Shown: one piece after another, positions 476 through 30,275 of the stretch | How positions within the stretch are numbered: the stretch's first letter is position 1 | How the letters are laid out: each line of letters begins with the position of its first letter | DNA from: an uncultured Acetobacter sp. | GTDB taxonomy: Bacteria; Pseudomonadota; Alphaproteobacteria; RF32; CAG-239 | DNA: 33,584 bases | Reading direction: 5' to 3' | Assembly (NCBI GenBank): GCA_964599945.1 | Contig: CAZRHI010000003.1 | Span: 1 to 33,584, forward strand | Notes under the pieces: model-generated | Told to the model about the DNA's origin: nothing | The model's input: the letters and a program-made list of their open reading frames with translations, nothing else | The model's database searches: none | Made by a program: the position numbers and the translations under genes

Positions 476-2152
476 GTGGTGGAAAATACAATTATATGTT
501 TGATTGTAATTGCGCTAATTAGCCTAATGCGCTTGCGTATGAGGTATGATAAAGTTTTATCTTGGCTGGTTTTCTTCGCGGTAGTGTATCTCTTTGAAAG
601 CTATTGCACTAGTTCTATAAGCACAAATGCCAATAATTTAAGCTTTTTGTGGAGTGAAACCCGAATCGGTAAAATCACCGTAACATTTACCCCAACAGTA
701 TCACTTAATCGTTTGGTTATCCCATTGTTTTTTATGACAATGATGACAATATTAAATAATAATATTTTTAGATACGAAGAAAGGCGTAGTGCGTTTAATG
801 CGTTTTTGTTATTAAACTTCGTAACGTTGAGTCTTTTGATGAGTGCTGAAAACTATGTTCAGCTGATAACTGCGGTGTTTGTTTCTGATATTTTAGGATA
901 TTTGGTGTTAAAAGATGTCGATTCGTCACATCGTTACGTTATTTATAATCTATTTGCAGATATGTGTTTGTTTATGGTTCTGGCTTTGGCTTGTGGTAAA
1001 ATCCAAAGTTTGGAATTGAGCAGTTTATCTAATTATAAAAAAATAGGAGGACATCGAGATTTTGTTGGTCTTATAACTGCCTTTGCTATATTTATCAAAA
1101 TTGGGTGTTTTCTGTTTCAAAGCTATTTGCTAGATATAAGTACAGCTCGCTTCCAAAGAATGAGTGTTATAAATCTGATGTTTTCACCTCTTGTGGGTAT
1201 ACTATTATTAGTAAAACTACATGATTTACTCTTAGTTTCTAATTTGTTTATTCCAACCTTAAAAATAATGTCTGGCACAACATTTATGGCAGGATTGTTC
1301 TATTTTGTGGTTAAAGATAATATACAAAAGAAAAATGTATGTTTAAATATGGCTTTTTATGGGTTACTAATGTATTTGTTGGAGTTGTGTCATTTTGAAT
1401 GGGTAACTCTTTTGGGCTACTACCTTATCATGATGTACCTCTTTAATCAGTTTATCTTTAAGATATATTTATATCAAAACAGAGAACAACGCGTCAGCCG
1501 TATGTTAAACGCTCGGGAAATTAACGCAGTTGCTCTGCAAACAATTTTTATGCAAGTTGTTTTTTTAGCAGGGCTGTTTTTTATGTTAATTTTGAAAACA
1601 TCAACAGCTCTTGCGGATAATAAAATAATTTTAGCAGGCGTTGCAATACTGTTGGCACTAAGCATAGTTTTGCATCACATATATAAATCACCACATTCAT
1701 ATCGTCTAGATTATCTAAACCCTAATAAATGGCGTGTTTTGTCATTTTTATTTAATAGCACATTGCTAGTTGTTGGGGGATATGTATTTGAGATATATCA
1801 ATGGCAGAGTGCAATTTTTGTAATTGTTTTTATGGCGATAACCGCTTTACCACAATGGGCAAAGCTGCGTAAACTTTATGAAAAAGAGGGACTGCAAAAA
1901 GAAGATGTAAGCAAAAGCTTGTTTTACTACATTTTGGTAGAGCCTTTGAAATATTTGAGTAGAACCCTGTGGTTAGTGGTAGATTTTATTTTTTCAGAAA
2001 AAATGATAACCTCAGCATTTGGAACAATAAATAAATTTAGCATTTCATGCTTTTTTAAACTAAATCAAAAGAGCATTGTGGCGGGTATTATATATATTAT
2101 TTTAGGAGTCTTGATTTTTGTTGCATCGTTTTATTGGAGATATTTCCTATGA
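476..2152 (+). CDS. NuoL/MnhA-like antiporter-type membrane protein (Proton_antipo_M-like), highly divergent
   Basis: 558 aa and polytopic. By-eye alignment to NuoL: SAENYVQL...VSDILGYLVLKD matches LADN....WEGVGL.SYLLIG. NLFADMCLFMVLALACGKIQSLEL matches TRVGD..L......Y...G.L.F. FIKIGCFLFQSYLLD matches GKSAQ.PL..WLPDA. GGAGA at 467-471 precedes GTG 476/479. It is the first of three consecutive paralogs upstream of birA. Confidence 0.6.
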   Translation: MVENTIICLIVIALISLMRLRMRYDKVLSWLVFFAVVYLFESYCTSSISTNANNLSFLWSETRIGKITVTFTPTVSLNRLVIPLFFMTMMTILNNNIFRYEERRSAFNAFLLLNFVTLSLLMSAENYVQLITAVFVSDILGYLVLKDVDSSHRYVIYNLFADMCLFMVLALACGKIQSLELSSLSNYKKIGGHRDFVGLITAFAIFIKIGCFLFQSYLLDISTARFQRMSVINLMFSPLVGILLLVKLHDLLLVSNLFIPTLKIMSGTTFMAGLFYFVVKDNIQKKNVCLNMAFYGLLMYLLELCHFEWVTLLGYYLIMMYLFNQFIFKIYLYQNREQRVSRMLNAREINAVALQTIFMQVVFLAGLFFMLILKTSTALADNKIILAGVAILLALSIVLHHIYKSPHSYRLDYLNPNKWRVLSFLFNSTLLVVGGYVFEIYQWQSAIFVIVFMAITALPQWAKLRKLYEKEGLQKEDVSKSLFYYILVEPLKYLSRTLWLVVDFIFSEKMITSAFGTINKFSISCFFKLNQKSIVAGIIYIILGVLIFVASFYWRYFL

Positions 2153-3576
2153 ATGAATATCTCTTGCTAATGTTAATCATTATACCTCTTTTAGGTTCGG
2201 TGTTTGCTTTATGCTCCAAAGAAGACCGAAATTATGCTATCAATAACATTTATTATGTGTCTATCTGGACAATGATAGTAAATACAATATTGGTGTTATA
2301 TACATTTTCCAAAATGGATGTAAATAAGAGCGGTATACAAATTATTGAGAAATATACATGGTTTAGTTTCCCCTCAACAGATATATTACTTGGGGCAGAT
2401 ATTTTTTCGATGTTGCTGTTGCTTAGTATCAATTTGTCTTTTTTAACAGCGGATATTTGTTTAGATCATACCACCGAACGTCCCAAAACGCTAATTGCTT
2501 CAGAACTCCTGTTTGTGGGTTTATTAGATGGCTATTTATTATCAGGTGATATAATTTCTTTTTATGCGTTTTTTACCGCCCTAATAGCCCCCGTTATTAT
2601 CTTGATTAGTACTTATGGCAATTTACGCAAGATAAACACGTTAATACGTTTTAGTTTGTATAATATCATTGGCGTTTTATTACTTTTTATATCAATTATG
2701 TTAATATGTCATTTCAAAATGGCAAATATTCCGCTTAATACTATTGGACACTTAAATCTAACAGGGGGAATAGAATATTTTGTCTGGTTAAGCATTTTGT
2801 TTGCATTTATCTCGCGTTTACCAGTTTGGCCATTTCATTATTGGATTTCATCAGTTAACGCCAGTTTGAAAAATCCATTAGTTTTTATTGTCGGAAACCT
2901 TATACCTTTGGTAGGTCTATATGGGTTTATTCGCTTTTGGCCAAATACTGTGCCTCAAACGATTGCGGAATATGCTCCCTTTTTTGAAGGGATTTGTATT
3001 TTGAGTATGCTGTTTATGTCGCTGGTAAGCCTAAGTCATAAAGATTTACGTTATAAACTTTTTTCATATACTGCCGTCTATTCACTCTTATTTTTAACTG
3101 GGATATTTTTGCCAACAGGCGTACTAAAATCTAGTATCGGATATTCTCTTTTTTCCTATATTATGATTGTTACAATCTTGTCTTTTTTAATAAGTCATGT
3201 CGAAACCCAAAAGAAAAAATTAAATCTATACCTAGGAAGTGGAATATTGTGCTATCTACCACGAACCTCCAAATGTCTTTCGTTGTTTGTTTTAGCAGCA
3301 ATAGGTCTGCCAGTAACCCCATTGTTTTGGAATAATTTTATTATCATCTCTGAGATATTTAATTTCAATCTTATTTTTGGTGTGTTGGTCATGCTATCAT
3401 TATTTATTGTCGCACTATCGTTATTAGAAGAATTATACCGAATGAAAGACAAGAGTTATGCGGAAAGCATATGTGTATTAGGAGAAGATCTCCCTAAACT
3501 ACATTTTGGAATATACATTGGGTGTTTGATGATTTTGTTCTTTTCATTTTTTAAACCTTTGTGGTTCGTTTTCTAA
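2149..3576 (+). CDS. NuoM-like antiporter-type membrane protein, divergent
   Basis: SRLPVWPFHYWISSVNASLKNPLVFIVGNLIPLVGLYGFIRF aligns with the NuoM core K.PL.PFH.WLPDAH.EAPT.GS..LAG.LLK.GGYGF.RF. ATG 2149 overlaps the upstream stop as ATGA (2149-2152). I therefore prefer it to the track start at 2134. Confidence 0.72.
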   Translation: MNEYLLLMLIIIPLLGSVFALCSKEDRNYAINNIYYVSIWTMIVNTILVLYTFSKMDVNKSGIQIIEKYTWFSFPSTDILLGADIFSMLLLLSINLSFLTADICLDHTTERPKTLIASELLFVGLLDGYLLSGDIISFYAFFTALIAPVIILISTYGNLRKINTLIRFSLYNIIGVLLLFISIMLICHFKMANIPLNTIGHLNLTGGIEYFVWLSILFAFISRLPVWPFHYWISSVNASLKNPLVFIVGNLIPLVGLYGFIRFWPNTVPQTIAEYAPFFEGICILSMLFMSLVSLSHKDLRYKLFSYTAVYSLLFLTGIFLPTGVLKSSIGYSLFSYIMIVTILSFLISHVETQKKKLNLYLGSGILCYLPRTSKCLSLFVLAAIGLPVTPLFWNNFIIISEIFNFNLIFGVLVMLSLFIVALSLLEELYRMKDKSYAESICVLGEDLPKLHFGIYIGCLMILFFSFFKPLWFVF

Positions 3577-3591
3577 AGGGAGTAAGTCAAA

Positions 3592-5013
3592 GTGTTACAG
3601 CAAATATTTTATGTGTTTCCAGAATTAGCTCTCTTTGGTGGTATAATTCATCTATATTTTAGCTATATATTAGGAGAAGAGTCCCCCAAGCTTTTTGCAA
3701 GAACTGCGCGTATATGGTTGTTAATTTCCTTGTTTTGTAGTGTAATGTATTATGACCATAGCTTTAATGAAAAATATTTTTCAAATAATTCATATACCTT
3801 GCTGTTTAAAATAATAATCAATATCTTTGCTTATATGATATTAGGACTAGCACCACAATATTTCTCTGCCACAAAAAAGAGTGGTTGTAAATTTTATATT
3901 TTATTTTTATCAGCACTTATCTCAATAAATGTAATGCTTGCAACAGTTAATGTAACAATATTAGTGTTAAGTTATCTTTTATTGTTGTTTATCAACCACC
4001 GACTGTTGGAAGTAAACTGCGACAAAATGTCTTTAGTGGCGCGTTTACGTTATATGAGTGCAGGAGCGGTGATACTTTGTTTGCTCGTATTTGGTTTTGT
4101 TGGCATATATACATTAACCAATGGCTCACCAGATTACTATTTGCTCGCCAACATAATAGAAGAAAAAAAACAATCTTTTATGGTCTATCTATATGTCATC
4201 TGCTTGATAATACCATTTTTATATTCTTTAGGGCTAGCTCCATTTCATAGTTTTTCAGAAGATAAATTAGGAAAGTCCTCTCTGCCCGTAAGTCATTATT
4301 TAGCCGTGGTTGTTCCCTTCGCTTATTGGGGAACATTTATTAAGCTAAATAAAGAAATCGCAACGCCATTTGCCGAACAAATATCACCAGTGTATATGTT
4401 TTTGGGACTGTTATCAGTTGTATACGGCGCAATGGGGGCAAATGCGAGAATTAACCTACATCGCATCTATTCATTTTGCTTAATGTACTATTTTGGTATG
4501 CTGTTAGTGTTATTGTCATTGTTTAATCCTCAGACAGATTTTATAATTTTCATTAGCTTGTTTGCCAGTATAATCGGAATAAACGGAGTTTACCTTGTGT
4601 TTTATAGCTTAAAAAGCAGAAATGAGTATCTATCAGCAATAACCTCGCTCTCTGGTTTAGCGGAAACTCGTCCATATACCACAGCAACTTTACTGATTAG
4701 CTTGTTTTCGCTAATGGGGATGCCACCATTAGCAGGCTTTTTAGGACAAGTTAGCCTAGCATCAGAACTGATTGCCTCTAAGAGTTTTATAAGTCTAAGT
4801 ATTATCTTTTTCTTTTTATTGTTATTAGCAAAAACTTATCTAGAAATCATGAAAACAGCATATTTCGAACATAAAATCATCGCGTTAGATACTGAACCAA
4901 AATTTTTATGGCTCTATATGCTCGGTAACATCATCTGTATCGGTGTAATCGCATTTAATCCTAACCACCTGTTAAAGATAATAAAGGATATGTTTTATGT
5001 CATTTTCATTTAA
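3592..5013 (+). CDS. NuoN-like antiporter-type membrane protein, divergent
   Basis: 473 aa and polytopic. LGLAPFHSFSEDKLGKSSLP matches K....PFH.W.PDVY.GAPT. ARLRYMSAGAV matches S.EA..KYF..G. The C-terminal LFSLMGMPPLAGFLGQ matches the NuoN motif L.SL.G.PP..GF..K. The GTG start has AGGGAG 8 nt upstream. It sits directly before birA, as nuoN does in Alphaproteobacteria. Confidence 0.65.
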   Translation: MLQQIFYVFPELALFGGIIHLYFSYILGEESPKLFARTARIWLLISLFCSVMYYDHSFNEKYFSNNSYTLLFKIIINIFAYMILGLAPQYFSATKKSGCKFYILFLSALISINVMLATVNVTILVLSYLLLLFINHRLLEVNCDKMSLVARLRYMSAGAVILCLLVFGFVGIYTLTNGSPDYYLLANIIEEKKQSFMVYLYVICLIIPFLYSLGLAPFHSFSEDKLGKSSLPVSHYLAVVVPFAYWGTFIKLNKEIATPFAEQISPVYMFLGLLSVVYGAMGANARINLHRIYSFCLMYYFGMLLVLLSLFNPQTDFIIFISLFASIIGINGVYLVFYSLKSRNEYLSAITSLSGLAETRPYTTATLLISLFSLMGMPPLAGFLGQVSLASELIASKSFISLSIIFFFLLLLAKTYLEIMKTAYFEHKIIALDTEPKFLWLYMLGNIICIGVIAFNPNHLLKIIKDMFYVIFI

Positions 5014-8472: not shown

Positions 8473-9408
8473 TTATAACCTTTTCCGTTTCATAACGTCA
8501 AATAGTTCAATAATTTTCTTAGCTTGTCCACGGCTACTCCACCCACCAGCTAATTGTTGGAGAGTCTTTTTCCGTTCCATTACTTGAGCAACATCAGCAA
8601 GCAATGCGTCATACATAGGCCTAAATTCCTCAGGACTATGATACATCGGAACAACATCGCCAAATAGTTTTTCTATGGCAGAGTTATAGCGCACAAAAGG
8701 CAAGCCACCATGCTCAATAATTTTGATAATTTGCGCAGGCATGATTTCTTCAGCAATATCTTTTTCATCTTGGTCAACCAATATAAGAGAATAATTAGTA
8801 TAATCCGAATAAAGTGGTTCAGCTCCTATAATTTCATCAGCAGGCCACATGGTTTCAAAACCTCTACCAAAAACATCAAGGCTCAACTGTTCATTACCCG
8901 CAAGAAATAAAGAAAGAGAAGGGACAGCACTCGAGCCAAAAAACATCGCTTTCCCGTTAGGAACACGAATATCCATATCCTCAAGGTTGATTGCCTCAGG
9001 AATGTAAGCCGTGCGAACGTTAATTGCCTTAAGATAAAGAAAAGGAGGCATATTTTTTGTAATAATAACGTCAAAAGGTCTTAAAAGTTCTGGATTAGTA
9101 TCGTTTTCCAATCTATCAACCCATAAAAAGTTAATGGCATCACTATCAATAACTTGAGGTAATTTTTGATTGTTTAGTGCGGTATAAACATTATATTGCC
9201 CACTCTGAGGGGAATGACTTTTTGATAACACAACATGTTTACCCTCTTGTTCTAAAAAGGTCTTTAATTTCTGTAAGAGAGAAAAAGACGAATTATTATA
9301 GGCGTTAAGGTAAATTGTATCATCTTTGCCTAGAGAGGTCTTTTTTAAATAAACACCTCCACCAATAACGAGCAACAAAACAACAATCGTCAAAAGAATT
9401 TTTTTCAT
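8473..9408 (-). CDS. membrane-anchored or exported protein carrying a diverged CgeB-like (Glyco_trans_1_2-like) module
   Basis: It has an N-terminal hydrophobic anchor (MKKILLTIVVLLLVIGGGVYL). The remainder is collinear with each half of the upstream 666-aa protein. FDVIITKN..YLKAINVRTAYIPEA matches FDLIAVSS..YLKEIEKLGIKTIFAPQF. VFGRGF matches LFGNGW. LILVDQ...MPAQIIKIIEHGGLPFV....IEKLFGDVVPMYHSPEEF matches IVLND...ISNRVFDVTASGGFLISDY..VEQFYGDSIPMFKTKEEL. Its ATG overlaps the upstream stop as ATGA (9405-9408). Confidence 0.5.
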   Translation of the reverse strand: MKKILLTIVVLLLVIGGGVYLKKTSLGKDDTIYLNAYNNSSFSLLQKLKTFLEQEGKHVVLSKSHSPQSGQYNVYTALNNQKLPQVIDSDAINFLWVDRLENDTNPELLRPFDVIITKNMPPFLYLKAINVRTAYIPEAINLEDMDIRVPNGKAMFFGSSAVPSLSLFLAGNEQLSLDVFGRGFETMWPADEIIGAEPLYSDYTNYSLILVDQDEKDIAEEIMPAQIIKIIEHGGLPFVRYNSAIEKLFGDVVPMYHSPEEFRPMYDALLADVAQVMERKKTLQQLAGGWSSRGQAKKIIELFDVMKRKRL

Positions 9409-11405
9409 TTTTTTTCCTCATGTACTAAGTCGAAGAGATTTTTAAATTTACGCCCCAAAATAGTGTTTGTATATCCATTAAGCGTAATTTTTTGAGCTTG
9501 TTGAGCCTTTTTTGCCCTTTCTTCAGGATGTGCTAAATAATAATCAACAAGCCTCTTAAACTCTTCTTTGTTTTTAAACATCGGAATACTATCTCCGAAA
9601 ATCTCTTCAATATATGGGCTATAAGCCGAAATCACAAAAGCACTAGTTGCCGTAGTATCATACAAACGGTTAATAACAAGTCCTAGCTCAGATAAATCTT
9701 TTGCTTGGTCGTTTAAGACAATCTTTGCAGAGGAGTAATATCTGTTAAGTTCTGTATTATCAATAAAGTTACCTTTCCAATATTTTTCAGGAATTTTATT
9801 TTGCCAGTTAAATCCAAAAACAGAAATATCATAGCCATATTCAACCGCATAGCGAACACTTACGCGTTCATACCAATAAGAGCCAACAAAAAGTAAATCT
9901 GTCTTAAAACGCTCTTCTGGGTTATAGCTAAATTTTTCAGGGTTAGTAAATTGTGGCGCAAAAGCGGTTTTATATCCTCTTTTCTTTAGTTCTTGAAACA
10001 TAACTTTCGCAGGTGTCGCAATCAGGTCAAAAAATTCAAGTTGATTGTTCAAATAAGCATCAGTGTTGTAAATAAGATAATCTTTAGTGTTTCTAAATTT
10101 ACCACGCTCTGGAATAAACGTCGGAAAATATAAATACATCAATCTAGATTTGTCATCATCTTCAAAATCTATATGATTATATTTAAACTGCATATAAAGC
10201 AAATTGCGAGCGTTATCATAAAAGGCATCTTTATCAAATTTTTTCTTATAGTAATATTCTTTAACATCAAATCCATTGTTTTTAAGCCCAGCCACTAAAT
10301 CTTTACCTAACCAATAATCTCCAATATCAATAGAATACTGTTCCCAAGGTAATTTGACCGCAACTTTTGAGCTATCAAGTTTTGCAGATGTATCTTTTTT
10401 ATGAATACTATCAACTGCTTCTAAAATTTGTTTGGCGACAACACGATTGGTAAAATATTTTAATGTAATTTGTTGAGCTTTTAATGTCTTTGCTTTGCGC
10501 TCTTCTGGATGATTAAGATAATAAGTTAATAATTGAGCCAATTCTTCTTTTGTTTTAAACATCGGAATACTATCGCCATAAAATTGTTCAACTTCTGGCA
10601 TATAATCAGAAATCAAAAATCCCCCACTTGCAGTAACATCAAAAACACGATTGCTGATAAAACCATCTTTTTTCATATCTTCCCGAGTGTCGTTTAACAC
10701 AATTTTTGCCGAGGAATAATATTTATGCAATTCATTATTATCAATATATTCGCCTTTAAAAAATTGTTCAGGGGCTTTGTCTTGCCAACCATTTCCAAAA
10801 AGAGCAACTTCAAACCCACTTTCAATCGCCCATTTTGCACTAATTCGCTCATACCCAGGTCTTCCCACAAATAAAATATCGTAGGCTACATTCCCGTCAT
10901 ATTCATAAAAGAACTTTCTAGGGTTAGTAAACTGTGGTGCAAAAATTGTTTTAATACCTAGTTTCTCAATTTCTTTAAGATATGTTGGGGAAGATACAGC
11001 AATCAAATCAAAATCCCAAAGCTCTGTTTGAAGTGAATACCAATCAGGCTCAAAAAATCCTTTTAGGTTTTTGTATTTATGTGATTGCGCCGTTTCTAGA
11101 GGATAATACAAATACAAAACTTTCTTTTTAGAATCATCTTTCGGTGGGTTAAACGGCACAAACCCATGCATATAAACATCAATTTTGCTCTGATGACTAT
11201 TCTGAGGATAATAATTTCCAATATATGCTGGCTGAACTGTTAAGTCAAAACTTTCAAATCCTTCTTTTAAGTCTTGCCCTAAAATATAGTCGCCCCACGC
11301 ATACCAATTTTTTTCGGATGAAATTTTTAATCCAATATCAGAAGCCCAAACAGAATGTGAAAGGGCAAAAAGTACAAGAGCAATAAATTTTAGATGCTTA
11401 ACCAT
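9405..11405 (-). CDS. secreted tandem-duplicated CgeB-family glycosyltransferase-like protein (two Glyco_trans_1_2-like modules)
   Basis: It has a Sec-type signal peptide, MVKHLKFIALVLFALSHSVWA/SD. Two collinear modules of about 325 aa are offset by exactly 327 aa: FAPQFTNP at aa 155 and 482, and GDSIPMFK at aa 277 and 604. Each ends with the PF13524-like pattern AKIVLND....NR.(F/Y)D.TA...F.IS.Y......FGDSIPMFK.KEE....YYL.HPEER. Confidence 0.7.
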   Translation of the reverse strand: MVKHLKFIALVLFALSHSVWASDIGLKISSEKNWYAWGDYILGQDLKEGFESFDLTVQPAYIGNYYPQNSHQSKIDVYMHGFVPFNPPKDDSKKKVLYLYYPLETAQSHKYKNLKGFFEPDWYSLQTELWDFDLIAVSSPTYLKEIEKLGIKTIFAPQFTNPRKFFYEYDGNVAYDILFVGRPGYERISAKWAIESGFEVALFGNGWQDKAPEQFFKGEYIDNNELHKYYSSAKIVLNDTREDMKKDGFISNRVFDVTASGGFLISDYMPEVEQFYGDSIPMFKTKEELAQLLTYYLNHPEERKAKTLKAQQITLKYFTNRVVAKQILEAVDSIHKKDTSAKLDSSKVAVKLPWEQYSIDIGDYWLGKDLVAGLKNNGFDVKEYYYKKKFDKDAFYDNARNLLYMQFKYNHIDFEDDDKSRLMYLYFPTFIPERGKFRNTKDYLIYNTDAYLNNQLEFFDLIATPAKVMFQELKKRGYKTAFAPQFTNPEKFSYNPEERFKTDLLFVGSYWYERVSVRYAVEYGYDISVFGFNWQNKIPEKYWKGNFIDNTELNRYYSSAKIVLNDQAKDLSELGLVINRLYDTTATSAFVISAYSPYIEEIFGDSIPMFKNKEEFKRLVDYYLAHPEERAKKAQQAQKITLNGYTNTILGRKFKNLFDLVHEEKK
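9408..11342 (-). repeat. intragenic tandem duplication (module 1 at 10371-11342, module 2 at 9408-10370)
   Basis: The DNA keeps islands of identity offset by 981 nt. For example, tttaaacatcggaatactatc occurs at 9573-9593 and at 10554-10574. The protein modules are collinear throughout. Confidence 0.8.
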
Positions 11406-11407
11406 GC

Positions 11408-12787
11408 TTATTTCTTTTCATCACTAACGTTCATAAGCCATAACCCGTTTTTAACATTGTACTTATAAATTTTATAAATAAAATAAACACCAACAGGAAT
11501 AAACACTAACGCATATATCCAGAAAATATCAATAACGTGTATCCTGCTAAATCCACCTTCATTTTTAAGCAAAAACTTAGGCGACATCAACATCAAAGAG
11601 GTGAGCAATCTTCCAATCATCATATTCACCGAAGAGGAAAGAGAACGGATTTTGGGGTTAATGAGTCTATGAAGCCGACTTATATGTGATATGGTAAACA
11701 TTAACTGAATGCCAATGCACACACATAAAAAGATAATAAATAGAAAACATTGCAGCGGGGTAATCTGTCCAGCTTTCATGAAAGCAAAAGAGAGCGCGCA
11801 CCCGATAATCTCCATCGCAAAAGAAATATTGCCAAGGCTAAAAAGCGAAATATGCTTAGCAACAGAAGCAGCAAAATAACTAAACGATGAGCGAAGGAGG
11901 TTATTGATAAAAATAACCACACCCATAACCTTGATATAATCAAGCCAGTCAAGACTTAAAATGTAATTCCAAACCGTTTCGCCAAACACGCGTGCGTCCC
12001 AACCGATAGAATCCGCAAAGTCGGTAAGAGATACCGAAGGGTTGATACCAGTGCTTTTCATCAATGGCTGAAAGCTCCAAAAGAAAAAGTGTGAAACCCC
12101 AACCATAAACCCTGAAAACAATACCAAATAGCAATATTTACGGGACTTCAAAATATAGCGTACCGCTACCCAAAACTTTTTCAAACGTTCCTTAACCCCA
12201 ATAACCGTGTTTTTAACAGGAGTATGCGCATTCGGTAAGAAAGAAAGCAAAACAATCGCTGTTGAATAAATAACAAATTCCGCAATCAGCAAAACATGAG
12301 AGCCAAATTTAGTATAAAGCCCAGCACCTAATAACGCAGCGATTCCCGTTCCGATATACATTGCTGCATTAAAGTTTGAATATGCTTTAACCATCTTCTT
12401 TTCTTCGCCGTTTTTCTTTAAGATGTCATAAATAAAAGATGAAGAAACCGAATCAAAACAAGCCTTTGAACAAGCGTAAAAAAATTCACCAATTAAAATA
12501 ATCTCGAAACCACGAAAGAAAATCCACAAAAATAAGCGTCCTAAAAATAAACTGTACGCGGTAATAAGGATATACTTACGAGGGAAAATATCTCCCAAAT
12601 ATCCAGCAGGAATTTCAAATAAAAATGCAAAAAAAACAATTAACCCCTGAATGAGGTAAAAGTCTCCAACAGACAATCCATTTTCTTGATAAAAAAACAA
12701 TAAAACAGGCAACAAAAACAACTGCGACCGCAAAAACGCCGCTATATTATACATGCTCAATGGCACAAAAGATACAAATTTATTCAT
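11408..12787 (-). CDS. MFS-type transporter
   Basis: 459 aa with about 12 hydrophobic spans. An MFS motif-A-like GYLGDIFPRKY follows the second span. Its stop lies 2 nt from the ATG of the downstream CgeB-like gene, so it is the first gene of the minus-strand operon. Confidence 0.75.
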   Translation of the reverse strand: MNKFVSFVPLSMYNIAAFLRSQLFLLPVLLFFYQENGLSVGDFYLIQGLIVFFAFLFEIPAGYLGDIFPRKYILITAYSLFLGRLFLWIFFRGFEIILIGEFFYACSKACFDSVSSSFIYDILKKNGEEKKMVKAYSNFNAAMYIGTGIAALLGAGLYTKFGSHVLLIAEFVIYSTAIVLLSFLPNAHTPVKNTVIGVKERLKKFWVAVRYILKSRKYCYLVLFSGFMVGVSHFFFWSFQPLMKSTGINPSVSLTDFADSIGWDARVFGETVWNYILSLDWLDYIKVMGVVIFINNLLRSSFSYFAASVAKHISLFSLGNISFAMEIIGCALSFAFMKAGQITPLQCFLFIIFLCVCIGIQLMFTISHISRLHRLINPKIRSLSSSVNMMIGRLLTSLMLMSPKFLLKNEGGFSRIHVIDIFWIYALVFIPVGVYFIYKIYKYNVKNGLWLMNVSDEKK

Positions 12788-12909
12788 AATCCAAACTTTT
12801 CCATAATGAAACTTATTTTATCATAGAATAACTTATCTTATTTGTCTTGTGTTATTCTCAAGTTGTTATAGTATAATTTAAAATATTAAAAACTTTTTAA
12901 GAGGAACTA

Positions 12910-13356
12910 ATGGAAAAAGGACGTTATAATAACGAGGATAAAGCGTTTATGTGTTTAACAAACCAATCTCGCAATGCTTCACGAATAAAGGAATTGATAA
13001 ATTTTATAAAGCTTAATGGCTATCAAAAAATAGGCATAGCTAACTGCTTTTCTGTTAATCCTATTGCTGAAAAACTAAAAGAAATGCTAGAAGCCGAGGG
13101 CCTAACCGCCGTGTCTGTACATTGTAAAGAATCAGGGTTAGAAGCCTCCGAGCTTTCCGAAACCATGACAGGTGCCTCGTGTGATCCGATGTCGCAAGCC
13201 CAATACTTAAATGCTTCAATGACAGATTTAAACATAAACTTCGGCTTGTGCTTGGGGCATGGTCTACTATTTCAAAAATACTCTAACGCTCCCGTAACCA
13301 CCTTGCTCGTCAAAGACGCCTGCCACAAACACAATATAATGGAAAATTTTGCTTAA
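12910..13356 (+). CDS. Cys-rich putative metal-binding protein, DUF1847-like
   Basis: AGAGGA SD precedes the start. As I recall the family, DUF1847 has the pattern CDP..QA..LN....DLNI..GLC.GHD.LF.KYS.APVTTL..KD. Here I read SCDPMSQAQYLNASMTDLNINFGLCLGHGLLFQKYSNAPVTTLLVKD. The call rests on motif memory only. Confidence 0.45.
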   Translation: MEKGRYNNEDKAFMCLTNQSRNASRIKELINFIKLNGYQKIGIANCFSVNPIAEKLKEMLEAEGLTAVSVHCKESGLEASELSETMTGASCDPMSQAQYLNASMTDLNINFGLCLGHGLLFQKYSNAPVTTLLVKDACHKHNIMENFA

Positions 13357-14386
13357 AAACATGAAAAAGATATTTCAAGCCATAGTTTTAATTCTCATAA
13401 TAGTTATTGCTACGATAGTTCTTTGTATCCAGCAAAAAACATATTACCTTAGCATCGGAGCAATTATGAAAAACGAAAAGCCGTATTTAAAAGAATGGTT
13501 GGAATATCATCTTATGCAAGGTGTGGAGCATTTTTACCTTTGTGATAATGACAGTACCGATGGAACGAAAGAATATCTTGAGCCATATATCAAAAATGGC
13601 ACCATAACATACATCAAACAATCAGGTATAAACCAACAACTAAAGTGCTATGAAAAAATTGTTACCAAATATAAAAATGAAACAAAGTGGTTGGCTCTAA
13701 TAGACTTAGATGAATACCTCGTCCCATTGCAAAAATCAACTATGCGTGCTTTTCTAAAAGAATTTGAAGATGTTTCAGAGGTTAGCCTAAACTGGATGAA
13801 TTACGGAGATTCGGAAGCCATTTCCCGCCCGTCTGGCTTAATTACAGAATTTTTCACTTCTCATAGTCGAGCCTTAAACCATACTGTAAAATCAATCGTC
13901 CGTCCCGAAAAGGTCATAGATTTTTCGCTATTTGGTGCAAATCATTATACACGAGTTGACGGCTTAAGTGTAAACGAATACCATAAACCAGTTTCGTTTA
14001 TGCTAAACTTTAATATCTCAGCAGATAAAGCACGCGTTAATCACTATATCTTAAAAAGTTTCGCCGAGTTTTTATATAAAAAGGGCAGGGGACACCCAGA
14101 GGGAACAGCGATAGATTATGAGTATTATTTCTTCCATAATGACAACGAGGTAAAAAACGATACGACAATGTTGCGTTTTTTGCCAAAGTTGAAAAAAAGA
14201 ATGAGAAAAAGTCCACTGACAGATGTTCCCGTTCCAACAGTTGCAAATCTTCCAGCCTCGCGTGATGATATAATCTTTACTGCTAAAGAAGCTTCTAACG
14301 TTTTAGGAAGAGAAGTTAATACTTCGATGACTTATAAAGAACTAGAAAAAGTCTATAAAAACCGCCACCCACAATATAAAAAATAA
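13349..14386 (+). CDS. membrane-anchored glycosyltransferase (Glyco_tranf_2_4 / GT92-like fold)
   Basis: It has an N-terminal TM segment (IFQAIVLILIIVIATIVLCI). This is followed by the typical KNEKPYLKEWLEYHLMQGVEHFYLCDNDSTDGT..YL.PY and then LIDLDEY (DxD-like). The start is ambiguous: ATG 13349 overlaps the upstream gene by 8 nt, and ATG 13361 lies 4 nt after that gene's stop. Confidence 0.7.
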   Translation: MLKNMKKIFQAIVLILIIVIATIVLCIQQKTYYLSIGAIMKNEKPYLKEWLEYHLMQGVEHFYLCDNDSTDGTKEYLEPYIKNGTITYIKQSGINQQLKCYEKIVTKYKNETKWLALIDLDEYLVPLQKSTMRAFLKEFEDVSEVSLNWMNYGDSEAISRPSGLITEFFTSHSRALNHTVKSIVRPEKVIDFSLFGANHYTRVDGLSVNEYHKPVSFMLNFNISADKARVNHYILKSFAEFLYKKGRGHPEGTAIDYEYYFFHNDNEVKNDTTMLRFLPKLKKRMRKSPLTDVPVPTVANLPASRDDIIFTAKEASNVLGREVNTSMTYKELEKVYKNRHPQYKK

Positions 14387-16337: not shown

Positions 16338-17387
16338 ATGTATTGTTGGAAAATCTTTAAATTTAGCAGACTTCTCACTCCGTCTGCATGGAAAAATCAG
16401 GATTGGAGAGATATCTTCACATATTTTTTCTGTGGTCTTTGTGGGGTAAGTATCGTAGTTTTCTCAAATGATGTCAACTATCCAGCTAATGAACCGAACT
16501 TTATGTTCATCGGTAACCTCATCTGGATTTGTGCGCTTTTTTCTATTATTGCAGAAACATTCTGGAGCGTATGCGGACCTACAAAGAGGTATAAGCTCAA
16601 TAATGGCAATACACGGCTCTTTGTTTACAAAAGCCAAACCCTCCATAAGCATGATTTGTTTGAACTGGTTGTTCATACAAAAGATGCCTCTTTCACTAAA
16701 TATGCCGAGGAATACAATGTGCCATATGTGGATAAAAGTGCCAACTGTTTTACATTCCGAGCCGCTGAAGACAATAATAGCGATTGGATAAGTTGTAATG
16801 TCCAAACTGGTCAAATCGAAGTTTTGGGCAATCGCTTAAATAAAATCCTATTTATCTCCTCAGAAAAGGATGGACGTCTTAACATTCTCATGATTGATGG
16901 TAGTGTGAAAAACTTAGAGTACGATTATATCGTTTATAATTCTTGTTATATCCCAAACGGAGCTAAGTTGCAAATACCACAAGATGTCAATAGTAGTTTC
17001 AAAAGCTTTCCTGATGAGTTTTTGTTTATCAAACATGGAAATGCTTACAAAACCTACAGTTTCTTCTTGAAAGATAACTACATCGGTTATAGCGAGGTTT
17101 TCATCAGTTCTGTCATCTTCCGCGAAGGAAAAGACCGCGTTTTGTTGGAGTTTGACGGCGAAAAGTATACGGAGTGCTTCCGAGCAGGCGAGCTAAGTCG
17201 TCGTCTGAATGATTATTTTCTTGAGCTGATAGATGACTACCGTGTGGGAGGAAAGGTCTATCATTATGACGCAAAGAAGAAAAGCCTTGATATCATCTAT
17301 GAAGGAAACTTCCGTAGTATAGAGTTTGATAACGGAGAGATTCTTGGTGATGATGGAAAAATCTATGGCAAAGATTACTCTTCATGA
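16338..17387 (+). CDS. orphan hypothetical membrane protein (two N-terminal TM helices plus a beta-rich soluble domain of about 260 aa)
   Basis: 349-aa ORF. The hydrophobic spans are IFTYFFCGLCGVSIVVF and FMFIGNLIWICALFSIIAETFW. I recognise no family motif. It is bracketed by its own promoter and terminator. There is no clear SD at 16338, so the start is uncertain. Confidence 0.55.
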   Translation: MYCWKIFKFSRLLTPSAWKNQDWRDIFTYFFCGLCGVSIVVFSNDVNYPANEPNFMFIGNLIWICALFSIIAETFWSVCGPTKRYKLNNGNTRLFVYKSQTLHKHDLFELVVHTKDASFTKYAEEYNVPYVDKSANCFTFRAAEDNNSDWISCNVQTGQIEVLGNRLNKILFISSEKDGRLNILMIDGSVKNLEYDYIVYNSCYIPNGAKLQIPQDVNSSFKSFPDEFLFIKHGNAYKTYSFFLKDNYIGYSEVFISSVIFREGKDRVLLEFDGEKYTECFRAGELSRRLNDYFLELIDDYRVGGKVYHYDAKKKSLDIIYEGNFRSIEFDNGEILGDDGKIYGKDYSS

Positions 17388-17444: not shown

Positions 17445-18395
17445 TTATTTGTAGCTATTGATTTTATTTTGAATAGCTTCAAGGCTTCTGCTGTTAAACG
17501 GTTCACCGTTAATAATAAGCATCGGTACACCGTTAATTCCCAAAACTTGAGATAAAGCATCAATGTCTTGAGAGCCACGACGAATACTCTTTTCTTCAAT
17601 CATCTCTTTAATTTCATCAACATTAAGACCTTCGTCAACCAAAATCTGGTTAATAGTTTCTTCGTTCATTTCAGGCAAAGTCATAACACCATCAAAAACT
17701 TCAACGAATTTACCTTTTTGAGCCGCCGCCAATGAAACTTTTGCTGCATAGTTGGAATGATCGCTAATGAAATATAAAGGTTGGAAAACAAACTTAACAT
17801 CAGGATTGTTTCTCATCAATTCGCTCATAACAGGAGCTAAAGATTTACAATGACTACAAGCAAAGTCAAAAAACTCTACAACAGCCACTTGCGCATCTTC
17901 AGGTCCAACAAAAGGAGCAACTTTGCTGTTTCTCATCTCATCCCAATGATCATGGAATTTTTGAGTTTCATCTGCTTCATCTTGAGATTGCTCATCATTG
18001 TTTTCTGCTTCACCAGAATCAGTAGAAACATGTGATGCCACAGCATTTTTAAAAGCTTCAGTTTCTATAACAGAATTTGCGACAAAGTCAGCATTATTAC
18101 GAATAAAATCTTCAATAATTGCAGGATTGTTTTCTATATAGTCCTTAATTTTGTTTCCAATTTCTTCATCACTAATCGTTGAGAAGTTTTTAACAATATC
18201 TCCAAAATTTTCACTTTTAGCAATATTTTCTAAAATAGCCTGTGAATTATTATTAACATACTGTTCCACAGTCATATCAATTTGTTTTTGTTGGTCTGCC
18301 TTTTTTTCTGGGCAAGTTCTATCTAAATAAATCATACCTCCAGCACCAGCAGCAGCCAATATGAAAATAGCCAACCCGTTCAATAATTTGTTCAT
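17445..18395 (-). CDS. DsbA-family thiol:disulfide oxidoreductase, membrane-anchored, with a long acidic linker
   Basis: It has an N-terminal TM (GLAIFILAAAGAGGMIY) and an acidic low-complexity stretch, DSGEAENNDEQSQDEADETQ. The thioredoxin fold shows VEFFDFACSHCK (CxxC) and a cis-Pro region, GINGVPMLIINGE. GGGGA SD precedes the start. Confidence 0.8.
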   Translation of the reverse strand: MNKLLNGLAIFILAAAGAGGMIYLDRTCPEKKADQQKQIDMTVEQYVNNNSQAILENIAKSENFGDIVKNFSTISDEEIGNKIKDYIENNPAIIEDFIRNNADFVANSVIETEAFKNAVASHVSTDSGEAENNDEQSQDEADETQKFHDHWDEMRNSKVAPFVGPEDAQVAVVEFFDFACSHCKSLAPVMSELMRNNPDVKFVFQPLYFISDHSNYAAKVSLAAAQKGKFVEVFDGVMTLPEMNEETINQILVDEGLNVDEIKEMIEEKSIRRGSQDIDALSQVLGINGVPMLIINGEPFNSRSLEAIQNKINSYK

Positions 18396-18524
18396 CTTAA
18401 AATCCCCATAAAAAATAATACCAAATATAATTTATCAGCCAAAATATTAAATGCAATAGCTTTTTAACAAACATCACAAACAAAAATAGAAGCATCAAAC
18501 ATCTCAATAGTCATTTTTTTAAAC

Positions 18525-18553
18525 AAAAAAGGCTCTCGCAATAAGCAAGAGCC
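18525..18553 (-). terminator. rho-independent terminator after the upstream DsbA-like gene
   Basis: On the minus strand, GGCTCTTGC(ttatt)GCGAGAGCC forms 9 bp with one G-U pair. It is followed by TTTTTT. It lies 24 nt downstream of the stop at 18577. Confidence 0.55.
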
Positions 18554-18576
18554 TAATATATCTTAAAGAAGTAAGA

Positions 18577-19335
18577 CTATTTCAAATTGTCAATAGCGTT
18601 TTGAATTTGGTTTACTTCAATAGCTTGTAAAGGTTCGCCGTTAATAATCAACGTTGGAACACCACGAATCTCTACTGTTTGAGAAAGCTCAGTAATAGCT
18701 TCTAAGCTTTTCTTAACTTTGTCGCTGTTCATAATCTCTTTGGTTTTAGCAACATCAAGACCAGCCTTAGAGATAATTTCTTCAATAGCAGCCTCGTCAA
18801 CAGGACCATTGTGAGTTAAGAAAGCTTTATAAACTTCTAAGAACTTTCCTTGTTCATTTGCTGCCATTGCAGCTTTAGCTGTTTGCAAAGAACCAAGGAA
18901 TGTAACAGGCTTAAATACAAACTTCACATCAGGGTTTGCTTTAATAACTTTTTCCATAGTTGGAGCTAAACGTTTGCAATAACCACAGTTAAAGTCAAAA
19001 AATTCAACGATAGTGATTTTTGCATCTTTTGGTCCAACAAATGGAGAATTATCTGCATTGTTTAATTCTTCAATATTTGCTTTATAAGATTCTGCAACAC
19101 GTTTTTGAGCTTCAATTTGCTCTTGTCTTGCTGCCAAGTCCAAAGCTTCACGAATTTTCATCGGATTGTTTTGTAAATAAGCTTCAATAGCTTGGTCAAT
19201 GTTCGTAGCTTCTGCAACATCAGCTGGAGCAACGTTAACAGAATTTTTACCAGCAACATGCGCAGCCAAACTTACTGAAACAAGCACACTGGCAATAACT
19301 GAAATTAAAATAGTAATGATATTATCTTTATTCAT
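18577..19335 (-). CDS. DsbA-family thiol:disulfide oxidoreductase, membrane-anchored
   Basis: It has an N-terminal TM and VEFFDFNCGYCKR (CxxC). IRGVPTLIINGE is the cis-Pro loop. The body is collinear with the neighbouring paralog, for example NPDVKFVF.P and QKGKF.EV. Confidence 0.8.
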   Translation of the reverse strand: MNKDNIITILISVIASVLVSVSLAAHVAGKNSVNVAPADVAEATNIDQAIEAYLQNNPMKIREALDLAARQEQIEAQKRVAESYKANIEELNNADNSPFVGPKDAKITIVEFFDFNCGYCKRLAPTMEKVIKANPDVKFVFKPVTFLGSLQTAKAAMAANEQGKFLEVYKAFLTHNGPVDEAAIEEIISKAGLDVAKTKEIMNSDKVKKSLEAITELSQTVEIRGVPTLIINGEPLQAIEVNQIQNAIDNLK

Positions 19336-20171: not shown

Positions 20172-21224
20172 ATGTTGACATATCTGTTTTTCCTCTCAAG
20201 TGGTTTATTTCTCGGGTGGTCATTAGGGGCAAATGATGCTTCTAATATCTTTGGAACCGCAGTCGGAACTAAAATGCTCCGTTTCACAACAGCAGCCCTA
20301 ATTGCCAGTATATTTATTGTGTTAGGCTCTGTTGTTAGCGGGCAAAACACCGCAGATACCTTAAACGCCCTAGGTGGTGTAAACACATTAGCCGCAGCGT
20401 TTTCAGTATCTCTTTCTTCGGCAATGGCTGTGGTTTTAATGCTAAGGGTAGGGATTAGCGTTTCAATTTCTCAAGCCATAGTTGGTGGAATTGTGGGGTG
20501 GAATGTATATACAAATAATCCAACAGATATGGATACGTTAGCAAATATTTGTGGGTCGTGGATTTTCTGCCCTATCATCTCAGGTGTGATTGCCGTAACC
20601 ATTTATTTGTGCATCAAAAAAATCTTACGTCATAGCAAAATACACATCTTACGACAAGATTTAGCCGTAAGAGTAGGGATGATTTTAACGACAGCCTTAG
20701 GTGGCTTTGCTTTGGGTGCAAATAATATGGCAAACGTGGTTGGTGTCTTTGTCGATTCGTGTATTTTCACCCCAATAAAACTCGGAGAAATTTATACATT
20801 AAGTGGTATACAAGTCCTATTTTTGCTAGGTGCGTTAGCTGCCTGCGTTGGTGTTTTCACATATTCCAAAAAGGCCATAAAAACCGTAGGGAAAAATGTC
20901 TTAGCTTTTTCACCAGTGGTTGCATGGATTGTGATTTTATCTCAATCTCTGGTGTTAATCTTGTTTTCATCACGAGGTCTTGAAAATTTCTTAATTTCAA
21001 TAGGCTTACCACCCTTACCAGCTGTTCCAGTTTCTAGCACGCAAGCGGTTATTGGTGCGATTGTGGGTATTGGCTTAGCCAAAGGTGGTAAAGGAATAAA
21101 ATGGAGTGTTGTGTTAAGGTTAGTATCTGGCTGGGTGGCTTCCCCTCTAATTGCATTTGTACTAAGCTATATCACGCTATCATTTATGGAAAATGTTTTC
21201 CGTCAACAAGTTTACTTACCATAA
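20172..21224 (+). CDS. pit: inorganic phosphate transporter, PiT (PHO4) family
   Basis: It has the duplicated signature GANDASNIFGTAVGT (N-terminal half) and GANNMANVVG (C-terminal half). It is 350 aa and polytopic. Confidence 0.9.
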   Translation: MLTYLFFLSSGLFLGWSLGANDASNIFGTAVGTKMLRFTTAALIASIFIVLGSVVSGQNTADTLNALGGVNTLAAAFSVSLSSAMAVVLMLRVGISVSISQAIVGGIVGWNVYTNNPTDMDTLANICGSWIFCPIISGVIAVTIYLCIKKILRHSKIHILRQDLAVRVGMILTTALGGFALGANNMANVVGVFVDSCIFTPIKLGEIYTLSGIQVLFLLGALAACVGVFTYSKKAIKTVGKNVLAFSPVVAWIVILSQSLVLILFSSRGLENFLISIGLPPLPAVPVSSTQAVIGAIVGIGLAKGGKGIKWSVVLRLVSGWVASPLIAFVLSYITLSFMENVFRQQVYLP

Positions 21225-21235
21225 AGGAGAACAAC

Positions 21236-25108: not shown

Positions 25109-25603
25109 ATGTTTATTGGTTTAGCCGTAGCTCTAGTGGCAACTGCCCTTGATCAGGTCTCAAAGATGTTGGTGTTTGGTTATTTAATGAAAACAGCCCC
25201 AGTGGTGAAAATAACCTCGTTTTTTAATCTGGTTTCCGCGTGGAATACAGGTGTAAGTTTTTCAATGTTTAACGATTTAGGGGATATGGGTGTATATATC
25301 TTATCCGCCTTTTCGTTGCTTGTTGTGAGTTTTCTTATTTGGTGGCTCTCCAAAGAAAAAGATTTTATAGCGCAGATAGCTTTAGGATTGGTTATTGGTG
25401 GGGCTATTGGTAACGTTATCGATCGTTTGCGTACAGGTGCAGTGTTTGATTTTCTGGACTTTCATTTTTCTGGCTATCATTGGCCAGCGTTTAATTTGGC
25501 GGATAGTTTTATCTGCATAGGTGCAATACTCATTATTTTTAATGGTATAGTTTTTAATTGTGAAAAAAGCACCTCGGCTTCTGTGAAAGGATTAAAAAAA
25601 TGA
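25109..25603 (+). CDS. lspA: lipoprotein signal peptidase (signal peptidase II)
   Basis: It has NTGVSFSMF, GGAIGNVIDR and FNLADSFICIG, which carry the catalytic Asp motifs. It is 164 aa with 4 TM spans. AAGGTG SD precedes the start. Confidence 0.9.
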   Translation: MFIGLAVALVATALDQVSKMLVFGYLMKTAPVVKITSFFNLVSAWNTGVSFSMFNDLGDMGVYILSAFSLLVVSFLIWWLSKEKDFIAQIALGLVIGGAIGNVIDRLRTGAVFDFLDFHFSGYHWPAFNLADSFICIGAILIIFNGIVFNCEKSTSASVKGLKK

Positions 25604-27132: not shown

Positions 27133-27133
27133 G

Positions 27134-28932: not shown

Positions 28933-29029
28933 AAACAGTTTGTCATTTAAAAATATCTGGTGTAAATATCACTGAGTTATATAAAGGGAAACTTGAAGTA
29001 ACTTGATACTAATAGAACGGAATTTTTAA

Positions 29030-30256: not shown

Positions 30257-30275
30257 TTTTATTAGGAGAGAGTTG

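Follow-up and report, generated by a model that had tools for sequence, protein, structure and literature searches.

We analysed a minus-strand operon in a 33,584-nt stretch of contig CAZRHI010000003.1 (assembly GCA_964599945.1), hereafter the window, from whose position 1 all coordinates are counted. The operon encodes a major facilitator superfamily (MFS) transporter, a 666-aa protein made of two tandem modules related to the glycosyltransferase (GT) CgeB, and a 311-aa protein which seems to be a third, degenerate module. An initial annotation had read the locus as an MFS operon with three exported CgeB-like modules, an unexpected location for such enzymes. Our results support this reading, and we put the probability that the modules are exported and coupled to the MFS protein at roughly three in four. 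The three open reading frames (ORFs) and the ATGA overlap lie exactly where that annotation had placed them. The features of the operon are as follows.

11408..12787, minus strand: MFS transporter, gene 1 of the operon; 459 aa, 12 transmembrane (TM) segments, predicted N-in/C-in, PF07690
11939..12073, minus strand: insertion of ~45 aa in the MFS TM7-TM8 periplasmic loop, from alignment with the fusion and pair MFS proteins described below
9405..11405, minus strand: 666-aa tandem GT-B protein, predicted to be secreted; two PF13524 stretches, AlphaFold2 (AF2) model, Foldseek matches
11343..11405, minus strand: predicted signal peptide, aa 1-21 (MVKHLKFIALVLFALSHSVWA), cleavage predicted before S22 from the pattern in 75 orthologues
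10386..11342, minus strand: module 1, aa 22-340, canonical CgeB-like GT-B, signature residues kept
9408..10385, minus strand: module 2, aa 341-666, canonical CgeB-like GT-B, 40% identical to module 1
9405..9408, minus strand: ATGA stop/start overlap of the 666-aa and 311-aa genes, translational coupling
8473..9408, minus strand: 311-aa anchored degenerate module (putative pseudo-glycosyltransferase), GT-B fold in the AF2 model, signature lost
9346..9408, minus strand: N-terminal anchor of the 311-aa protein, aa 1-21, MKK followed by an 18-aa hydrophobic stretch
12788..12909, no strand: intergenic region between the MFS operon (minus strand) and the DUF1847 and GT92-like genes (plus strand); 122-nt gap, presumed promoter

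The operon is translationally coupled, in the order MFS, tandem GT-B and anchored putative pseudo-GT-B. The ATG of the 666-aa gene comes 2 nt after the MFS stop codon, and the ATGA overlap has a GAGGA 8 nt upstream. Overlap or abutment of the 666-aa and 311-aa genes recurs in orthologous loci. A single sigma-70-like match was detected in the 122-nt gap (12848-12820, minus strand); the matches from the promoter and terminator scan were no commoner than in shuffled sequence, and the operon promoter presumably lies within 12788-12909.

The 666-aa protein matched PF13524 in two stretches with an E-value of 1.1e-44 and 152.4 bits (cutoff 25). Its residues 21-337 and 345-664 are 40% identical over ~320 residues (E 7e-84), and at the DNA level islands of 113 nt (74% identity) and 67 nt (75%) are repeated at a spacing of exactly 981 nt, that is 327 aa. 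Both the self-alignment and these islands agree with the tandem duplication of 327-aa offset proposed in the initial annotation. The additional DUF3880 domain (PF12996) which that annotation wanted checked stayed below threshold, with 20.3 bits against a cutoff of 25.2, and in module 2 only. We found ~77 full-length orthologues of the 666-aa protein with 58-73% identity, and all of the 120 homologues listed for it carry PF13524.

The 311-aa protein behaves differently. It gave no match in Pfam or NCBIfam, and only two of its 59 orthologues carry PF13524, hence the assignment of PF13524-type modules made at the outset holds by hidden Markov model (HMM) for both modules of the 666-aa protein and not for this one. 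BLASTP aligned it to module 1 with 21% identity (E 4e-11) and to module 2 with 25% identity (E 6e-14), and together with the modelled GT-B fold this agrees with its description as a third and more diverged copy. Thus it appears to belong to the CgeB-like group by BLASTP similarity and predicted fold, not by HMM. The protein evolves fast, its orthologues being 33-52% identical to it.

AF2 models built from family alignments gave a mean predicted local distance difference test (pLDDT) score of 89 and a predicted template modelling (pTM) score of 0.57 for the 666-aa protein, with two well-folded modules in a loose mutual orientation, and 93 and 0.84, respectively, for the 311-aa protein. In Foldseek searches against the PDB both models matched GT4-type GT-B enzymes with probability 1.0 and E-values of 1e-10 to 1e-6 at ~10-14% identity, among them GlgM, SenB, PimA, BshA, Gtf3/GtfC and sucrose-phosphate synthase, and for both models the GtfA/GtfB complex 5e9t. 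The models thus show all three modules in a GT-B fold. Sequence searches of the PDB with profiles of the full 666-aa protein and of 62 modules resulted in just one marginal C-terminal match, TreT.

To describe the signature of the family we aligned 62 canonical modules, with exported and anchor-less modules on the same profile; positions are numbered as in the 666-aa protein. Residues Q158, F159, T160, R187, G204, W207, Y230, D239, N252, R253, D256, Y268 and R303 are invariant or nearly so in the 62 modules, and R187, W207, N252-R253 and D256 are invariant in the paralogues as well. The signature common to the exported modules and the anchor-less archaeal and actinobacterial ones comprises G38, D39, Q158, T160, G181, R187, G204, W207, Y230, N238, D239, G248, F249, S251, N252, R253, D256, A259 and R303. 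Module 1 keeps G38, D39, Q158, T160, G181, R182, R187, W207, N238, D239, N252, R253, D256 and R303, and module 2 keeps the same set except that R182 is replaced by S509. In the 311-aa protein the replacements are R187S, W207F, N238V, G248E, N252A, R253Q, D256K and R303V. The family signature thus separates the two proteins, being retained by modules 1 and 2 but no longer present in the 311-aa protein.

Our literature searches turned up a single biochemical study of a PF13524-family member, on CgeB. B. subtilis CgeB has 317 aa, arranged as an N-domain, a C-domain and a helical tail; in a model with UDP-glucose R155 and R238 lie on the diphosphate and W196 on the uracil, and a weak UDP-glucose-dependent modification of CgeA by CgeB has been reported in vitro (PMC13577073). 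From the marginal C-terminal alignment with TreT, D256 may stand at the place of the second Glu of the GT4 EX7E motif. Judged by their signature residues, both canonical modules seem capable of catalysis, and their donor-type pocket appears unchanged. Their difference from the degenerate 311-aa partner argues that they are still under catalytic constraint, while the 311-aa protein is best read as a pseudo-glycosyltransferase and non-catalytic partner.

We then consider the location of these proteins. The presequences of 75 orthologues of the 666-aa protein are 20-30 aa long and divergent in sequence; their pattern is constant, with K/R, a short hydrophobic run, a small residue at -3 and a variable one at -2. 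Position -1 is A in 65 of the 75 and S, G, C or T in the other 10, position -3 is A, V, S or G in 69, and the mature start x-D-[IV]-G-L-K is conserved. The net charge ahead of the hydrophobic core is +1.3, and no internal Met allows a shorter, cytoplasmic start before the conserved fold of the family. In the AF2 model residues 2-16 form a detached helix, followed by a low-confidence linker (17-19). The presequence conforms to the classical signal peptidase I (Sec) pattern, and MVKHLKFIALVLFALSHSVWA/SD is shaped like a signal peptide; an AxA-type site kept across the 75 orthologues thus favours the cleavable Sec signal claimed earlier for this protein. We also considered a lipoprotein signal and rejected it, as the lipobox cysteine is absent in most orthologues.

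In the 311-aa family M1, K2 and K3 are at least 90% conserved and are followed by a hydrophobic core of ~19 residues. The flanks of this segment carry net charges of +2.14 on the N-side and +0.21 on the C-side, and the N-side is the more positive in 51 of 57 orthologues. By the positive-inside rule the MKK motif and the charge bias predict an N-in/C-out anchor, so that the hydrophobic anchor noted before seems to be present and of type II orientation. The AF2 model sets the TM helix (2-24) apart from the fold, with a lower-confidence linker at ~25-30. Taken together, the two N-termini appear to behave as a cleavable signal and an N-in anchor, and not as the non-cleaved N-out/C-in anchors which the initial annotation had seen as the case against export.

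The Cys content points in the same direction. Mature 666-type proteins contain 0.08% and 311-type proteins 0.06%, compared to 0.5-2.2% in the cytoplasmic proteins of the window and 0.5-1.4% in the anchor-less archaeal and actinobacterial homologues. No Cys at all is present in 40 of 73 mature 666-type proteins, and a single one in 31. Such avoidance fits exported proteins in a periplasm containing DsbA, and two DsbA genes lie 5 kb away.

The strongest indication of export comes from natural fusions of transporter and module. Locus L035 encodes a 740-aa protein that aligns with the window MFS over residues 5-397 (36% identity) and with module 1 over residues 451-736 (45%). Fusions of this kind form four diverged clusters (P0181-P0184; 739-752 aa, 45-99% identity to the L035 query), each with PF07690 and PF13524, which excludes an assembly artefact as the source of the MFS-module fusion. 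All four have an additional, fully hydrophobic helix between MFS TM12 and the module. Peak-picking counted 13 TM segments in three of them; in the fourth it ran two neighbouring helices together. In the window MFS and the fusions the predicted cytoplasmic loops hold 19-25 K+R and the periplasmic loops 4-7, or 4-6 in the fusions alone, with a motif-A-like GxxxDxxxRK in the TM2-TM3 loop. Given a canonical N-in/C-in MFS, the 13th helix would place the fused module in the periplasm.

The same combination occurs as split pairs of MFS and anchored module in at least two unrelated loci of ~32% GC. At L086 and L089 a PF13524 gene overlaps that of the MFS; its product, 332-335 aa long, has an MKK- or K/R-type anchor and starts MKKNLLLISLIISISLNFVLL... 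and MNYMARKIVLISFLVITLIIV..., respectively. The fusion can thus be seen as the MFS C-terminus joined to the module's own anchor, which would fix the orientation of this anchor as N-in. In L090, an unrelated contig (44% GC, 105-2317), a 316-aa GT2 protein of the GT-A type, with a very K/R-rich flank ahead of its TM helix, is encoded 12 nt upstream of an MFS gene of the window MFS family; hence the family may partner anchored glycosyltransferases of both GT-A and GT-B folds. A search for housekeeping genes that L035, L085 and L086 share with the alphaproteobacterial loci found none.

The window MFS itself matched PF07690 with an E-value of 7e-13 and 48.7 bits (cutoff 33.4). Peak-picking gave 12 hydrophobic segments, with 22 K+R in the cytoplasmic loops versus 7 in the periplasmic ones, and the TM2-TM3 loop contains the motif-A-like GYLGDIFPRKY. 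The family is small, with 51 representatives at E<=1e-30, and the closest relatives of the window MFS include the fusions. The insertion of ~45 aa between TM7 and TM8 is restricted to MFS proteins that accompany a tandem protein, as judged from an alignment in which the window MFS and P0188 were compared to the MFS sequences of the fusions and pairs; this loop is 44 aa long in the window MFS versus 4-14 aa in the fusions, and might have a docking role. The MFS_3 secretion effector family PF05977 reached 18.8 bits with the window MFS, against a cutoff of 27.

When one genome per GTDB species was scanned, the tandem protein turned up in ~30 species representatives, all uncultured Alphaproteobacteria (some labelled Rhodospirillales, Rickettsiales or Acetobacter). 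The few named 666-aa orthologues come from metagenome-assembled genomes (MAGs) of 'Acetobacter sp.' or 'Alphaproteobacteria bacterium', and the MAGs with the three genes, where a source is named, come from gut, rumen or colon samples. The order MFS-666-311 is kept in every one of the ~30 loci where the contig allows, so that the suggested survey of the neighbourhood returned a conserved triad in these species, and MFS/module pairs and fusions elsewhere. The best conserved gene of the triad is the MFS, with 81-90% identity across the ~30 species versus 61-71% for the tandem protein and 33-50% for the 311-aa protein; the MFS thus equals the neighbouring RNase J or LdcA in conservation.

Further paralogues exist in the triad-bearing alphaproteobacterial genomes. 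Some are single modules of ~338-373 aa, others are proteins of ~603-634 aa in which a canonical module follows an anchor and a strongly degenerate N-terminal region, and gene pairs of a canonical followed by a degenerate module were found in L065, L071 and L087. Nearly all full-length paralogues begin with K/R and a hydrophobic segment; in L062, L075 and L084 a visible segment falls just under the hydrophobicity cut-off. The homologues in Methanobacteriaceae and Actinomycetota (27% identity, 611-1286 aa) mostly have two tandem modules and lack an N-terminal hydrophobic segment. These anchor-less relatives suggest that the export signal was acquired in this bacterial branch, and that tandem modules occur in cytoplasmic relatives too.

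Some paralogue loci contain other genes worth recording. At L004:6664-9311 (55% GC) an anchored single PF13524 module follows ~12 nt after a BepA-like gene with Peptidase_M48 and TPR domains, and the relatives of this module (P0083-P0109) have long Pro/Arg-rich leaders before the hydrophobic segment. In L088 another MFS gene is convergent to a paralogue. In L087 (8895-10359 and 13047-15123) a 601-aa anchored paralogue is followed by a CTP_transf_3 cytidylyltransferase of the CMP-sugar synthetase type and a His_Phos_1 phosphatase; at the same locus a 391-aa PF13524 gene overlaps a 303-aa gene without a Pfam match, as a canonical plus degenerate pair, and a 179-aa Ank protein is encoded near a paralogue.

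Across the intergenic gap from the operon lie two plus-strand genes:

12910-13356, plus strand: DUF1847, 148 aa, 6 Cys
13349-14386, plus strand: GT92/GT2_4 (Glyco_tranf_2_4)-like GT-A by Pfam, MKK and TM anchor, 3 Cys

The orientation of the GT92-like anchor is ambiguous, with flank charges of +2.7 versus +2.1. The pair stands beside the triad in most orthologous loci; L007 is without the GT92 gene and L018 without both. It is possible that the two are accessory genes of the triad. In two orthologous loci (L001:10964-12091 and L002:4426-5553) an Acyl_transf_3 membrane acyltransferase gene (PF01757), of a family which acylates extracytoplasmic glycans, comes directly after the 313-aa gene, and is followed by an ORF of 79-88 aa that looks like a piece of the 311-aa protein; L006 contains an ORF of this kind as well.

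The other neighbours are syntenic housekeeping genes on other strands, namely BirA, RNase J, LD-carboxypeptidase, ABC-F, two DsbA and PhoU/PHO4. A functional link of the triad to LD-carboxypeptidase, RNase J, BirA, ABC-F or DsbA was considered and rejected on this ground. Among the Pfam and NCBIfam matches at the locus, its flanks and the orthologous loci we detected no Wzx/Wzy/Wzz, ABC capsule export, polyprenyl-phosphate initiating transferase or OpgGH genes. A known polysaccharide or capsule pathway, which according to the initial annotation would have refuted its reading, is thus without its hallmark genes here and in the orthologous loci.

The remaining parts of the window were inspected as well. 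The two adjacent DsbA-like genes (17445-19335, minus strand; 316 and 252 aa) have N-terminal extensions of ~100-160 aa. A 545-aa polytopic protein (21101-22738, plus strand) has a weak match to PMT_2, a GT-C family, with 20 bits against a cutoff of 26, and PF13231 is present in its L003 orthologue; as the ORF shares ~120 nt with the end of the PHO4 phosphate transporter gene, its true start is probably downstream. At 476-5013 (plus strand) a very hydrophobic 558-aa protein without family match is followed by two Proton_antipo_M (Nuo/Mrp-type) subunits, an arrangement syntenic in L003, the orthologous locus whose flank reaches that far. A 349-aa ORF (16338-17387, plus strand) has no Pfam match and a possible N-terminal membrane segment; its counterparts are 20-35% identical and evolve very fast. 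Neither this ORF nor the 558-aa one (476-2152), both of which were tried as further modules, has similarity to the GT modules. Signal peptidase II (25109-25603) and two M16 peptidase genes (25822-28516) precede a run of cell division and shape genes at 28606-30659 (plus strand), which encode DivIC/FtsB-like, M23 peptidase and bactofilin proteins. Finally, an 882-aa protein at 30704-33352 (plus strand) consists of nearly nothing but ankyrin repeats (Ank_2 2.4e-95, 10 stretches), and hints at an interaction with a eukaryotic host or protist.

Several observations weigh against periplasmic glycosyl transfer coupled to the MFS. Export is deduced from comparative sequence patterns, and the charge bias is weak in some paralogue anchors and in that of the GT92-like protein. 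The best NCBIfam match of the MFS, NF040872 (HP1165-type MFS efflux), reached 44.5 bits against a cutoff of 700, and a PDB sequence search with the window MFS gave no match; by sequence it resembles no characterised transporter. The flanking genes are uninformative on the product. Judged by spacing, R187, W207 and R253 are probably the counterparts of R155, W196 and R238 of CgeB. To our knowledge, neither an exporter of nucleotide sugars nor a Leloir-type GT-B that acts in the periplasm is known from bacteria, and small donors in the periplasm could leak via porins. E. coli, for its part, has the periplasmic UDP-sugar hydrolase UshA, and periplasmic nucleotide sugars are hence not unthinkable.

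Within the preferred reading of exported, MFS-coupled modules we propose the following mechanism. The MFS would hand a cytoplasmic substrate directly to the modules at its periplasmic face, and each of the two canonical modules might transfer one sugar to an acceptor in the envelope or periplasm. The soluble tandem enzyme would be tethered or activated by the anchored pseudo-GT, possibly helped by the periplasmic MFS loop particular to this clade, a role modelled on the non-catalytic GtfB that partners GtfA. For glycosyl transfer in the periplasm that is functionally coupled to the MFS, whatever the transported species, we regard the odds as even. The transported substrate would most likely be an activated donor, such as a nucleotide sugar; a nucleotide donor is favoured because the pocket signature is the same as in the cytoplasmic relatives and because an anchored GT-A also partners the MFS family. 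That the MFS supplies the donor is nevertheless a tentative suggestion on our part, and a flipped glycolipid acceptor, or uptake of a product after reverse or phosphorolytic action, are possible alternatives. In its fullest form, which we consider rather doubtful, the proposal amounts to a Golgi-like bacterial route in which the MFS exports nucleotide sugar to docked or fused Leloir enzymes of the GT-B and possibly GT-A type, and periplasmic glycan assembly would need neither polyprenyl-linked donors nor GT-C enzymes.

The initial annotation had offered three explanations, a secreted host-directed enzyme, a non-catalytic use of the fold, and periplasmic chemistry on a substrate supplied by the MFS; the fusions of MFS, TM13 and module, and the MFS/module pairs at other loci, favour the last of these. 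A different coupling of the same parts would be a periplasmic salvage, in which the exported modules break down glycans of the host, the diet or the envelope by phosphorolysis or reverse glycosyl transfer and the MFS imports the product, a sugar phosphate or other. GT-B phosphorylases such as GT35 glycogen phosphorylase and GT4 trehalose phosphorylase need no nucleotide sugar and most MFS proteins are importers or exchangers, which lends this idea some credit; it would also remove the problem of donor supply in the periplasm, and the organisms are gut-associated with several exported paralogues per genome. Yet the full signature, including the Trp and Asp that may touch the base and ribose, is the same as in the cytoplasmic relatives, which is unexpected if the nucleotide is dispensable, a fused 1:1 transporter-enzyme on the trans side suits an export hand-off at least as well as import, and no glycan-binding or glycoside hydrolase genes were found nearby. 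We therefore think salvage improbable. Somewhat less probable again is a pathway on the cytoplasmic face, with the N-termini as N-out/C-in anchors or membrane-associated helices and the MFS exporting or flipping a finished product as in LtaA/YpfP. This is the textbook arrangement for GT-B enzymes, and the weak charge bias in some paralogue anchors and in the GT92-like anchor, together with a topology read from comparison of sequences, speak for it. It is difficult to reconcile with the 666-aa protein, where a short hydrophobic region with a conserved AxA site is no anchor, with the 13th TM that sets the module opposite the cytoplasmic MFS C-terminus in four diverged fusions, with the extreme Cys avoidance relative to the anchor-less homologues, and with the MKK of the 311-aa family, which sits before the anchor and not after it.

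The remaining two explanations of the initial annotation fare worse. If the exported modules served only to bind a ligand, be it a carbohydrate, a nucleotide or a phosphorylated compound, and so acted as receptor or scaffold for the MFS in the periplasm, one could understand why the 311-aa module is conserved despite its lost signature, and such modules evidently exist in the system; even the activity reported for CgeB, the best-studied PF13524 member we found, is weak in vitro (PMC13577073). Modules 1 and 2 and all anchored paralogues, on the other hand, keep every signature residue of the cytoplasmic homologues, and a non-catalytic role is for these two modules very unlikely. We give least credence to a tandem protein which leaves the cell and glycosylates host or neighbour targets with extracellular or host nucleotide sugars. 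The cleavable signal peptide, with no anchor left after cleavage, and the ankyrin-repeat protein in the window, with its hint of interaction with eukaryotes, are what this idea can draw on. Against it stand relatives that are tethered to an inner-membrane transporter or fused with it, the translational coupling of the gene to one for a membrane-anchored partner, and a locus that has no dedicated secretion system.

As a working rule, Leloir-type GT-A and GT-B enzymes act in the cytoplasm, and beyond the inner membrane lipid-linked donors and GT-C enzymes are used. If the topology proposed here is correct, the periplasm must receive nucleotide sugars or some other activated donor by an undescribed route, or else the GT-B scaffold has been adapted to a new donor, and either outcome would add a new route of envelope glycan assembly. 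A function would also be assigned to an uncharacterised MFS family and to a multi-gene family of abundant uncultured gut Alphaproteobacteria. The system would be categorically new if periplasmic Leloir-type glycosylation were demonstrated, and the fusion proteins offer a compact construct for assays of topology, binding and transport.

The initial annotation knew of no described system with this architecture. Our full-text literature searches, the coverage of which is incomplete, agree, as neither an exported PF13524 protein nor a periplasmic GT-B coupled to an MFS is described in what they returned. The comparison with known systems can nonetheless be made part by part. CgeB belongs to the same Pfam family, its 317 aa correspond to a module of ~320 aa, both have the three-part layout of N-domain, C-domain and helical tail, and the conserved Arg, Arg and Trp of the modules probably correspond to those that the CgeB model places around UDP-glucose. 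It differs as a single module without signal peptide which acts in the mother-cell cytoplasm on the crust protein CgeA, whereas the window system has two fused canonical modules and one degenerate module, export signals, an MFS operon and a DUF3880 match below threshold. The GtfA-GtfB complex of streptococcal serine-rich repeat adhesins (5e9t) likewise pairs a catalytic GT-B with a non-catalytic protein of the GT-B fold, but is cytoplasmic, has no transporter partner and is only 10-14% identical to the window modules.

Other systems resemble the operon in their logic. GtrA/GtrB/GtrC, ArnC/ArnEF/ArnT and CsbB/GtcA/YfhO combine cytoplasmic activation, a small transporter and an outer-face transferase, and the window has an anchored GT-A next door. 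In the Gtr, Arn and YfhO systems, however, the outer-face enzyme is a polytopic GT-C and the donor a polyprenyl-phosphate sugar, whereas the window system would have a soluble or anchored outer-face GT-B with a nucleotide-type signature, and its transporter is an MFS. The MFS glycolipid flippase LtaA and YpfP of S. aureus are co-encoded and form one pathway across the membrane, as an MFS and a glycosyltransferase are encoded together here; YpfP works in the cytoplasm before flipping, while the window transferase is predicted on the far side, and no sequence relationship of the window MFS to LtaA was detected in the NCBIfam and PDB searches. The closest parallel in topology may be the nucleotide-sugar transporters and type II glycosyltransferases of the Golgi and endoplasmic reticulum, with an N-in anchor or cleaved signal, a non-cytosolic Leloir domain and the expectation of a supplying transporter. 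The Golgi transporters are antiporters of the drug/metabolite transporter (DMT) superfamily and the window transporter is an MFS, so this is an analogy alone, with no homology shown. The enzyme family in the window is thus a known one, but its predicted topology and its gene context are unprecedented, and it differs from the described members in its predicted location, its tandem architecture and its coupling to a transporter.

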